A DNA stretch of 64,000 nucleotides. Origin: Candidatus Babeliales bacterium (GTDB taxonomy: Bacteria > Babelota > Babeliae > Babelales > Vermiphilaceae). A model generated the notes under the pieces. That model saw only the letters and a program-made list of their open reading frames with translations. It made no database searches and was not told the DNA's origin. The first letter of the stretch is position 1. Every line of letters begins with the position of its first letter. The position numbers and the translations under genes were made by a program. This document shows, one piece after another, positions 21,713-23,560 of this stretch. Location of the stretch: positions 192,001 through 256,000 of the forward strand of contig CAVUQO010000002.1 in NCBI GenBank assembly GCA_963743635.1, read 5' to 3'.

Positions 21713-23560
21713 GTGGAAAGAAATAAAATTATAGCAGTTGCCGTGCTGGCGATTGGCATTATTGCATGGCGCGTGGGCGCGATGGAGCAGGGCGGGCAAG
21801 CGCAGGCTGGTCAAGAAATGATAACGGTCTATCAACTCAATAACGCTGGCAATGAGGAAAGCGTCCAGGTTCCATGGGATCAGCTGCGGCTTTTTGAAAT
21901 GTTTAGCGATATGCGTGGTTATGTGCAGGAGATGAATCCAGCTGAAGCAAATAGATTGCCGCTCAGTAATACTATTTCAATGAATATCTTCAAAACATTA
22001 TTAGCGGAATTGCCGTGGGCGCAGCAGGTGCGGATTAACCGGCAGCAAAATGAGACTGAAGAGCAAGCGGCAAAAAGAATGGCGAAAACCATGCCGGCGG
22101 TAGCATTCAATCGAGATAGATTAAGCGCATTGGCGGTTCAATTAAAGGCAGCAGATTTTTTACAACAACAGCCATTAATAGAACTGTATACGCATCAGAT
22201 AGTAGGCATGATCATGTCCGAGGCATCAATGAGATTGTTGAGTCAAGTCGATAAGAAATACGGTCACGACGTCGCTGCCTTAGTGAATGCGTTGCCTCCC
22301 GAACTGGCGTTGCATATTGTGAAAAGTATGCCAAGAGCAGCAATATGGCTTGAGCAGCATACGATTGCGCATGATAAGGTTACCTCAGTAGCGATATCAG
22401 CAGATGGCAATAAAGTGGTGACGGGATCTGTTGATCATACGGCAAAGATATTTGCATGGAATGGCAATGCATGGGTTGAGGATCATACGATTCGGCATGC
22501 TGATATAGTTAACTCAGTAGCGATATCAGCAGATGGCAATAGGGTAGTGACGGGATCGTGGGATAGGACGGCAAAGATAGTGGTCTGGGATGGCGCTGCA
22601 TGGATTGAGCAGCATATGATTCGTCATAATAATTGGGTTAACTCAGTAGCGATATCGGCAGATGGCAATAAGGTGGTGACGGGATCTGTTGATCATACGG
22701 CAAAGATATTTGCATGGAATGGCAATGCATGGATTGAGGAGCATACGATTCGGCATAACAATGCGGTTGACTCAGTAGCGATATCAGCAGATGGCAATAA
22801 GGTGGTGACGGGATCTGTTGATCATACGGCAAAGATATTTGCATGGAATGGCAATGCATGGGTTGAGGAGCATACGATTCGGCATAACAATGCGGTTGAC
22901 TCAGTAGCGATATCAGCAGATGGCAATAGGGTGGTGACGGGAGCTGATGAGAGGGTGTTAAGAATCTTTGCATGGGATGGTAATGCATGGAGAGAGCAGC
23001 ATACGCTTGAGGATAGTGGAAAAGTTTACTTAGTAGCGATATCAGCGGATGGCAATACGGTGGTGGGGATATCTTTTCGTGCGGCAAAGATAGTCGGATG
23101 GAATGGCAATGCATGGATTGAGCAGCCTCCGATTGCGCAGGGCGCGGTTAACTCAGTAGCGATATCAGCAGATGGCAAGAGGGTGGTGACTGGATCTGAT
23201 GATGGTACGGCAAAGATATTTGCATGGAATGGCAATGCATGGATTGAGCAGCATACGATTGTGCATGATGAGAAGGTTATGTCAGTAGCGATATCAGCGG
23301 ATGGCAATAGGGCGGTGGCGGGATATGAGGGTCCGGCAAAGATAGTGGGGCTTGTATCAAGATCATTGCCTGGAATATCTGATTTGGATACCTGTTTATT
23401 TGAGCATCTATTGCTGTGGGCAAAGAGAAGTGGGGAGAAAATATCTAAATTCGGCTGGGCAGGAGATATATTGCGGAGTATTCAATGGCGTGCTGTAGAG
23501 CCAGTTGCTAGAGAACAACTTCAAAAATTAATTCGAGAAACAATGCAGCATGCAGTGTGA
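21713..23560 (+). CDS. Secreted WD40-repeat protein with N-terminal Skp1/BTB-like and F-box-like segments
   Basis: Signal peptide RVGA-ME; LKAADFLQQQPLIEL (Skp1-like); LPPELALHIV (F-box-like); eight SVAISADG..VVTGS.D.TAKI repeats. Confidence 0.88.
   Translation: MERNKIIAVAVLAIGIIAWRVGAMEQGGQAQAGQEMITVYQLNNAGNEESVQVPWDQLRLFEMFSDMRGYVQEMNPAEANRLPLSNTISMNIFKTLLAELPWAQQVRINRQQNETEEQAAKRMAKTMPAVAFNRDRLSALAVQLKAADFLQQQPLIELYTHQIVGMIMSEASMRLLSQVDKKYGHDVAALVNALPPELALHIVKSMPRAAIWLEQHTIAHDKVTSVAISADGNKVVTGSVDHTAKIFAWNGNAWVEDHTIRHADIVNSVAISADGNRVVTGSWDRTAKIVVWDGAAWIEQHMIRHNNWVNSVAISADGNKVVTGSVDHTAKIFAWNGNAWIEEHTIRHNNAVDSVAISADGNKVVTGSVDHTAKIFAWNGNAWVEEHTIRHNNAVDSVAISADGNRVVTGADERVLRIFAWDGNAWREQHTLEDSGKVYLVAISADGNTVVGISFRAAKIVGWNGNAWIEQPPIAQGAVNSVAISADGKRVVTGSDDGTAKIFAWNGNAWIEQHTIVHDEKVMSVAISADGNRAVAGYEGPAKIVGLVSRSLPGISDLDTCLFEHLLLWAKRSGEKISKFGWAGDILRSIQWRAVEPVAREQLQKLIRETMQHAV
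22345..23345. repeat. 129-bp tandem repeat, 8 copies (WD40 blades)
   Basis: tcagtagcgatatc(a/g)gc(a/g)gatggcaa recurs at 22385, 22514, 22643, 22772, 22901, ~23030, 23153 and 23282. Confidence 0.95.

Follow-up and report, generated by a model that had tools for sequence, protein, structure and literature searches.

A leader-bearing Skp1-like/WD40 fusion protein of a Dependentiae symbiont as a candidate single-chain mimic of cullin-RING substrate receptors

An open reading frame (ORF) in the genome of a Candidatus Babeliales bacterium encodes a single chain in which a Sec-type leader is followed by a domain homologous to eukaryotic Skp1, an eight-bladed WD40 propeller and a conserved helical tail, and this architecture recurs in a paralogous family of the same genome. 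The ORF, confirmed by reading of the sequence, occupies positions 21713..23560 and encodes 615 residues plus the stop codon; like all parts of the gene discussed below, it lies on the + strand of a stretch of 64,000 nucleotides, here called the window, which covers positions 192001-256000 of contig CAVUQO010000002.1 (hereafter C2) of assembly GCA_963743635.1. We propose, leaning only modestly to this side, that the protein is a single-chain mimic of a cullin-RING substrate receptor, namely, an exported eukaryote-like effector in which a Skp1-like core, clamped in cis, would dock on a host cullin whereas the propeller would recruit substrates. An original prediction, made from the letters of the window, had envisaged a fused adaptor-receptor of this general kind; the leader, the Skp1-homologous domain and the eight-bladed propeller, all in one chain of a eukaryote-dependent bacterium, have stood up to scrutiny, but the F-box that it had placed between the two domains has not.

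The Skp1-like core, a BTB/POZ-fold unit, comprises residues 35-167 (21815..22213) and corresponds to Skp1 residues ~3-126, as indicated by a family profile, an AlphaFold2 (AF2) model, and the structure comparison programs Foldseek and VIA-align. The profile (A1), derived from an alignment of 21 mature modules of this genome, recovered 55 rows at E <= 10 among the Protein Data Bank (PDB) sequences, and rows 1-30 were without exception Skp1 (human, plant, Dictyostelium and yeast), the top one (E 6.9e-8, 35.7 bits) pairing profile positions 1-126 with Skp1 residues 3-126; next came 20 rows of Elongin C (E 0.09-0.28) and, finally, 5 unrelated ones. The two stretches that had previously been aligned with Skp1 by eye (PLSN...LKxLL and L..AA.(Y/F)L....L...) are paired by HMMER with the very same stretches of Skp1, and no feature is better conserved across 61 members of the family than the Skp1-type AA.YL helix. 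The Pfam model Skp1_POZ (PF03931) is passed by a paralogue at 668123-668272 of contig C3 of this genome (31.1 bits vs a cut-off of 21.9) as well as by six relatives from outside it (P0019, P0050, P0051, P0052, P0053 and P0064, among the 50 of 82 relatives listed), and matches in 0/14 control genomes. The BTB model (PF00651) yielded no match in the query and, in the entire genome, a best score of 16.7 bits in one paralogue, below the cut-off of 20.5. Given the Skp1_POZ pass and the sub-cut-off BTB score, the family, so far as sequence can tell, belongs with Skp1 within the BTB-fold superfamily. The Pfam model Skp1 (PF01466), which represents helices H7/H8, matched neither this genome nor any control genome, a null that carries no information given the silent controls.

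Structure prediction yielded a confident AF2 model of residues 35-214, with a predicted local distance difference test score (pLDDT) of 91.4 and a predicted template modelling score (pTM) of 0.87, and this model matches Skp1 and BTB proteins, so that the fold anticipated for the N-terminal region is indeed the one predicted. In the Foldseek search, most rows, including the top eight, were Skp1 chains with a probability of about 1.0, the best E-value being 3.3e-3 and none reaching 1e-3. Comparison by VIA-align with 48,161 chains returned 11 at Z >= 8, scores of 8-9 being in the middling range by the tool's own guide. At the top of this list stands the BTB/3-box region of SPOP (Z 9.0, root-mean-square deviation (rmsd) 3.0, 122 aligned residues, model 1..180), and the others include the BTB domain of NPR1 (Z 8.9 and 8.8), Skp1 (Z 8.8, 8.7 and 8.4), several further BTB domains and, lower down, Elongin C (Z 7.2); the whole list represents one fold, in accord with the result of the sequence profile. 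In the ESM Atlas, where the N-terminal module scored 0.76-0.79, values that provide leads only, every named neighbour was Skp1, Elongin C or a BTB protein. The Skp1-homologous BTB/POZ-fold domain is genuine.

In the full-length AF2 model, the core ends in helices 134-149 and 153-167, and three short helices (170-177, 181-192 and 196-205) come next, within residues 168-208 (22214..22336), making up the junction to the propeller. In the VIA-align comparison, Skp1 aligns only up to residue 154-155 of the 180 in the module model whereas BTB/3-box proteins span all of it, and because of these extents, the post-core helices can be assigned to the site of Skp1 H7/H8 or of the BTB 3-box. In KLHL11, the 3-box consists of two helices packed on alpha5/alpha6, according to Canning and colleagues (Canning 2013, PMC3597819). 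This likeness brings up the first alternative, that the architecture is the one that we propose but the partner is another cullin, the protein being a BTB/3-box or Elongin C-type adaptor on Cul3 (or Cul2/5) rather than on Cul1. The best VIA-align rows that span model 1..180 come from just such proteins (SPOP 9.0, KBTBD2 8.2, KLHL22 8.0, KEAP1 7.8 and vaccinia A55 7.5), BTB proteins are established single-chain adaptor-receptors (PMC3597819), and Elongin C is among the proteins found by the family profile. That profile, however, favours Skp1 by six orders of magnitude, Skp1_POZ passes where the BTB model remains below its cut-off in the only paralogue concerned, and in the AF2 model, a beta-hairpin follows directly upon the leader and linker, without room for an N-terminal extension. 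Such an extension is used by classical BTB dimers. All in all, a Cul3- or Cul2/5-type adaptor appears unlikely.

The propeller (residues 209-548, 22337..23356) is identified by Pfam, by the AF2 model and by structure matches. The Pfam WD40 model (PF00400) covers 7 stretches with E 4.8e-43, the remaining families listed are all beta-propeller models, and the DNA has a 129-bp unit in 7.7 copies (22345-23324), the units agreeing at 79% of positions. The full-length AF2 model, built on a 27-row alignment (A2; pLDDT 89.2, pTM 0.81), places the propeller strands from residue 212 to 547, and the structures that match it best are WD40 proteins with eight blades: ODA16 (Z 41.5, rmsd 2.0, 324 aligned residues), and further TBLR1 (Z 39.4), Rsa4 (Z 39.0), Fbw7 (Z 34.9) and Cdc4 (Z 33.5). 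Since these matches are eight-bladed, as is the model itself, the count of eight repeats in the original prediction is right. The designed eight-bladed protein Tako8 is also matched (Z 35.6, with 29-30% identity), and this likeness to a symmetric designed protein, along with the unusual similarity of the blades to one another, suggests recent internal amplification of a single blade. The alignments with Fbw7 and Cdc4, which begin at model residue ~207 and thus include the propeller only, are uninformative with respect to the junction.

It is at this junction that an F-box had been claimed, in the motif LVNALPPELALHIVKSM (residues 190-206, 22280..22330). The letters are there, but what they encode is a single linker helix. 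F-boxes consist of three helices in 40-50 residues, whereas in the AF2 model, only helix 196-205 sits between the preceding helices and the first propeller strand at 212. Hidden Markov models (HMMs) of the F-box (PF00646) and F-box-like (PF12937) families do not match residues 1-215 at E <= 10, and a scan of the entire genome with them was empty at E <= 0.01. Of 1483 ORFs, 3 contain the loose pattern LP.E-h-h-h-x-[LIVM], compared with 1.6 +/- 1.3 in shuffled proteomes, and since the three are close paralogues, this amounts to one independent occurrence, at chance level. Nor is the motif a property of the family: across 61 near-full modules, of which 20 belong to this genome and 41 are external, no residue holds a majority at the LPPE columns, and what is conserved close by is I..YMP..W. 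A Skp1-like domain followed by a true F-box and the WD40 propeller, as literally foreseen, is therefore a very improbable arrangement, even though LPPELALHIV fits the loose LPxE consensus and the helix is placed where a link between Skp1 and receptor would be expected, with predicted contacts to the tail at 199, 202-203 and 206-210. The HMM null, the single helix, the unconserved LPPE and the chance-level motif count contradict a true F-box at residues 190-206, and the Fbw7 and Cdc4 alignments, confined to the propeller, lend it nothing.

The place that an F-box would fill seems to be taken by another part of the chain. Residues 549-615 (23357..23557) form a conserved tail of three helices (557-573, 582-589 and 597-610 in the full-length model) that is predicted to pack on residues 167-210. 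Its conserved motif reads LPGISD(F/L)D..LFEHLL.WA...W, or, more generally, LPG(I/V)SDFD..LFEHLL.WA...W, with FDQALFIHMLRWA or NPLAVHYLRWC as variants in more distant paralogues, and W582 is nearly invariant in alignment A2. When residues 35-210 and 548-615 were submitted to complex prediction as separate chains, the score was 0.79 vs 0.00 for the best of 3 controls, three runs shared at least 90% of contacts, the partner pLDDT was at least 84, and the interface joined residues 167-210 with 556-585. The mark applied was reached by 116/157 solved complexes and 2/215 mismatched pairs, a calibration that is rough here because the prediction was run with an alignment of our own making; besides, two parts of one chain tend to pass, and a pass does not amount to demonstrated binding. 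As tail and N-terminal module belong to one chain, we read the pass as support for intramolecular packing, consistent with the full-chain pTM noted above. Modelling thus predicts that the tail packs in cis against the post-core helices, which correspond to the F-box-binding end of Skp1. A search of the PDB sequences with a tail profile produced one unrelated row at E 0.23 and no sequence link to F-box proteins, and neither Pfam nor the ESM Atlas offered a usable relative. To call the tail F-box-like is, then, to draw an analogy and not to report a finding. A bolder version of our proposal takes this analogy further: the protein would be a self-contained SCF (Skp1-cullin-F-box) receptor of circular arrangement in which a C-terminal three-helix "pseudo-F-box", placed behind the propeller, fills the Skp1-like end in cis, such that neither host Skp1 nor an F-box is needed for docking on host Cul1, and the ~22 recombined copies, exported through Sec with A|M cleavage, would serve as programmable degraders. 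We put this version forward tentatively, as a possibility that is on balance rather doubtful.

At the opposite end of the chain, residues 1-23 (21713..21781) have the make-up of a Sec-type leader, as judged by inspection and by a genome-wide pattern: the basic n-region MERNK, a 14-residue hydrophobic stretch (IIAVAVLAIGIIAW) and RVGA|M, with predicted cleavage at A23|M24. On these signs, the signal peptide of the original prediction is probable. A short Q/G/A-rich linker of low model confidence (residues 24-34, 21782..21814) connects it to the core, and residues 1-31 have pLDDT < 50 in the full-length model. Among 452 ORFs of the genome with leader-like N-termini, a set chosen independently of the motif, 107 close the hydrophobic region with AM; Met follows Ala at such ends in 109/682 cases (0.160), as opposed to 588/29,186 (0.020) in protein bodies, an eightfold enrichment. 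Because the enrichment holds among all leader-like ORFs, the A|M ending is a general habit of the exported proteins of this genome and not special to the Skp1-like family. The A|M leader ends tend to have Q, E, D or N next (as at 21770-21790 of the window), and cleavage at this point would leave an N-terminal methionine on the exported proteins.

As for secretion genes, the genome encodes two secretins and two GspE/PilB-type ATPases, and pilin-like N-termini are seen as well. The leader invites a second alternative, under which the product is a protein of the bacterial envelope or surface whose propeller binds a ligand and whose BTB-fold module is a scaffold, without any link to host ubiquitination. 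Leader-bearing beta-propellers are common in bacterial envelopes, the leader here is a classical one, and the injection-system markers (FHIPEP and VirB4) that were sought in the 85%-complete genome were not found. It is harder to accommodate under this alternative that Skp1_POZ has no match in the 14 well-known control genomes, that the nearest relatives by sequence and fold are Skp1 and BTB proteins of eukaryotes and giant viruses, and that a reduced Dependentiae genome devotes 2.76% of its DNA to the family. An envelope role is accordingly improbable in our judgment.

A search of the genome recovered 22 module matches at E <= 1, and three rounds of a local profile search extended this to 26 ORFs, two of which share the leader only; with a leader-free profile, 24 ORFs contain the module, together 40,068 nucleotides. 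The module is combined with WD repeats in 22 ORFs and, in 20 of these, also with the tail. Most members lie in tandem clusters (C2:109192-115737, C3:1311-8191, C3:664153-669733 and C3:795121-802791). Identity to the query varies from domain to domain: in one paralogue, it is 96% in the leader, 50% in the module, 71% in the propeller and 87% in the tail, and in another, 100%, 90%, 70% and 78%, respectively, while leader identity is still 83-100% in copies whose module has no more than 19-53%. This independent variation of the domains indicates, at the sequence level, recombination among the copies, and suggests that recombination or gene conversion has shaped the family. Such diversity bears on a third alternative, in which the protein is a decoy or inhibitor: the module would occupy a host cullin or another partner of Skp1, or the propeller would sequester host proteins, so that SCF is blocked and not redirected. 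The evidence for the Skp1-like fold serves this alternative equally well, productive ubiquitination has no direct sign here, and a rigid clamp is compatible with simple sequestration; yet the ~22 paralogues differ most in their combinations of module and propeller, which would be better explained by many targets than by one block. We consider a decoy unlikely, too. One member, an ORF of 1102 residues at C3:504788-508096, has the Skp1-like module in an internal position (~598-758), with WD repeats and the tail motif behind it and 560 residues at the N-terminal side. Family copies are also found at the extreme ends of C2 and C3, and one of these (C2:4-486) has 2 in-match TGA stops; the assembly probably breaks in family repeats, and this copy may be a pseudogene.

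Beyond this genome, 130 proteins reached E <= 1e-3 in a profile search of 1.84 billion representative sequences, among them 62 with E <= 1e-10 and 19 with E <= 1e-30, and 123/134 proteins in the resulting set of relatives come from elsewhere. There are 55 external proteins with at least 58 bits, of which 31 have at least 500 residues; among these 31, the WD profile matches 23, the tail profile 15, and 11 show module, WD repeats and tail in this order. The WD profile was built from the query, and both it and the tail profile are narrow, so these counts are lower bounds. Pfam assigned a WD40-type propeller to 39, Skp1_POZ only to 4 and nothing to 7 of the relatives, again for the 50 of 82 listed. 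The weakest relatives, ~150-200 residues long and matching profile positions 1-126, look like ordinary Skp1. To judge from their sequences, dozens of metagenomic relatives share the architecture. Searches that started from single sequences went less far: a word-based search of 5.8 billion proteins with region 1-215 gave only 4 matches, all on contigs as long as C2 and C3 of this genome, a related-locus search with a single module gave 109 pattern matches and no relative, and Pfam and NCBIfam searches of the N-terminal 215 and C-terminal 96 residues of the query gave nothing useful.

The carrier genome (1,454,283 bases, or 1.45 Mb, in 3 contigs, 85% complete) is that of a Dependentiae (TM6) symbiont. 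The C-terminal half of the GroEL encoded in the window is 70-78% identical to its counterparts in metagenome-assembled genomes assigned to Candidatus Dependentiae, Babeliales, Babeliaceae, candidate division TM6 and Vermiphilus pyriformis, as compared with 62-67% for other phyla, and the sampled genomes of the same phylum range from about 0.9 to 1.7 Mb. Those Dependentiae (TM6) that have been cultured live as obligate intracellular partners of amoebae and other protists.

On these grounds, the single-chain receptor mimic that we favour can be outlined as follows. The protein, provided with a Sec-type leader, would be exported by the intracellular symbiont, and the tail would fold back on the post-core helices, filling in cis the region where Skp1 holds a separate F-box protein and holding the propeller rigidly against the Skp1-like core. 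Within the host cell, this core may dock on a host cullin at its N-terminal domain, a step suggested by the fact that Skp1, Elongin C and BTB domains bind cullins, in each case through the first cullin repeat (PMC3597819). Cul1 would be the likeliest partner, Skp1 being the nearest relative by sequence, and Cul3 the chief alternative, given that BTB/3-box adaptors provide the best superposition over the entire module. The propeller would then select host proteins and present them to the ligase, which would ubiquitinate them, with the fusion and the cis clamp substituting for the F-box, and the ~22 paralogues, in which the domains are shuffled, would steer the host ligase towards many different targets.

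Several observations weigh against this proposal. On its own, the N-terminal region of the query (215 residues) has no Pfam match at E <= 10 and 0 phmmer matches among PDB sequences at the same threshold; the link to Skp1 therefore needs the family profile. Even with that profile, the sequence likeness ends at Skp1 residue 126, H7/H8 remaining unmatched, and on the structural side, the Foldseek E-values and VIA-align scores are modest, as is the weight of a complex prediction made from two parts of one chain. A Sec leader delivers a protein to the periplasm only, whence the outer membrane and a host membrane would still have to be crossed, and neither the type III secretion system marker FHIPEP nor the type IV marker VirB4 was found in the 85%-complete genome. 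The family is, moreover, patchy in its phylum: at E <= 1e-5, it was detected in 8/201 genomes including this one, the other seven matches having E-values of 4e-6 to 8e-9, so that just 7/200 other sampled genomes show even a weak match.

Comparison with known systems brings out what is ordinary in this protein and what is not. With Skp1 it shares profile homology over residues 3-126, the BTB/POZ fold and the conserved AA.YL helix. However, Skp1 is a free adaptor of ~160 residues that serves separate F-box proteins, whereas here the homologous module is the N-terminal domain of a leader-bearing bacterial protein of 615 residues, fused to its own propeller, with no sequence match in the H7/H8 region and with its own tail predicted in the place of the F-box. 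Fbw7 and Cdc4, taken together with Skp1, likewise join an eight-bladed WD40 propeller to a Skp1-type module via a helical junction, although there two proteins are involved instead of one, and there is no F-box here. A further parallel in organization is with the BTB/3-box adaptors of Cul3 (SPOP, KEAP1, KLHL; BTB-WD40 and BTB-Kelch proteins), which combine adaptor and receptor in one chain, have a beta-propeller receptor and, to judge from the structure matches, may resemble our protein in the 3-box-like packing of the post-core helices; the bacterial family differs from them by its sequence, which is nearer to Skp1, by the lack of a visible N-terminal dimerisation extension, by the tail clamp and by its origin. 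BTB proteins on Cul3 have been described as 'single chain analogs' of Skp1/beta-TrCP1 (Canning 2013, PMC3597819), and the original prediction, which had presented a single-chain adaptor-receptor as unprecedented, overstated the case.

Among bacteria, the nearest analogues are the BTB-box and F-box families of amoeba-associated Chlamydiae, as presented in Domman 2014 (PMC4209131), and Legionella F-box effectors such as AnkB, whose complex with human Skp1 (5k35) is among the Foldseek matches of our module model. All of these are eukaryote-like parts of ubiquitin ligases in bacteria of amoebae, and the families are large, tandem and fast-evolving. The chlamydial and Legionella effectors couple an F-box or BTB-box to leucine-rich, tetratricopeptide or ankyrin repeats and either borrow host Skp1 or are themselves classical BTB proteins, whereas the present family, from another phylum, has the Skp1 homologue itself, fused to WD40. 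The routes of export also differ, the chlamydial effectors having been examined in a type III assay (PMC4209131), as against a Sec leader here. Giant viruses (Mimivirus, Moumouvirus, Orpheovirus and pithoviruses), parasites of the same kind of host, also encode Skp1 and BTB/POZ(+WD40) proteins; these are, however, viral, leaderless and mostly classical BTB proteins, with a likeness at the fold level only, and their fold matches to our module are weak (best E 5.8e-3). In the open-access literature, we found no published description of a bacterial Skp1 homologue fused to WD40.

To our knowledge, the known bacterial mimics of cullin-RING components carry an F-box, a U-box/RING or a BTB-box, and those of the F-box type depend on host Skp1. 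Single-chain adaptor-receptors as such being already known, the novelty of the present family is that it carries the Skp1 homologue itself, welded to the receptor. If the core docks on a host cullin, a bacterium would have a way into SCF-type ligases that circumvents Skp1 as well as the F-box, and the predicted cis clamp would exemplify a natural replacement of the Skp1/F-box junction by fusion, which is of relevance for engineered degraders. The share of the 1.45 Mb genome that is given over to the family, ~2.8%, points to a central role in the dealings between symbiont and host, and the paralogues supply many natural receptor variants for a search for host targets.

The GTG start codon is preceded, 4 nucleotides in the 5' direction, by a G-rich element that resembles a ribosome-binding site (AAGGGGGA, 21702..21709), read directly from the sequence. 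No sigma-70-like site was found upstream of the ORF on the + strand, the region as a whole containing 4 such sites vs 6.8 expected. At 23590..23624, 30 nucleotides past the stop codon, there is a strong intrinsic terminator with a 10-bp stem, including 8 G-C pairs, and a subsequent T run. Directly 3' of the gene lie two paralogous ORFs of ~260 residues (23785-24567 and 24632-25417) with hydrophobic N-termini and 32% identity to each other (E 7e-28), for which no NCBIfam match was obtained at E <= 1e-8. The groEL gene of the window is spread over two overlapping ORFs, 19112..19822 and 19819..20772 (span 19112-20772), that cover GroEL profile positions 3-231 and 233-543, the break falling at an A run (…ATGAAAACATGATG…); this apparent one-base frameshift may stem from a homopolymer error in the assembly rather than from a true interruption of the gene. 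Farther away, at 11668-14217 on the - strand, an ORF of 848 residues encodes a double-AAA ATPase that scores below or close to the cut-offs of the models for FtsH, CDC48 and proteasome-activating nucleotidase.

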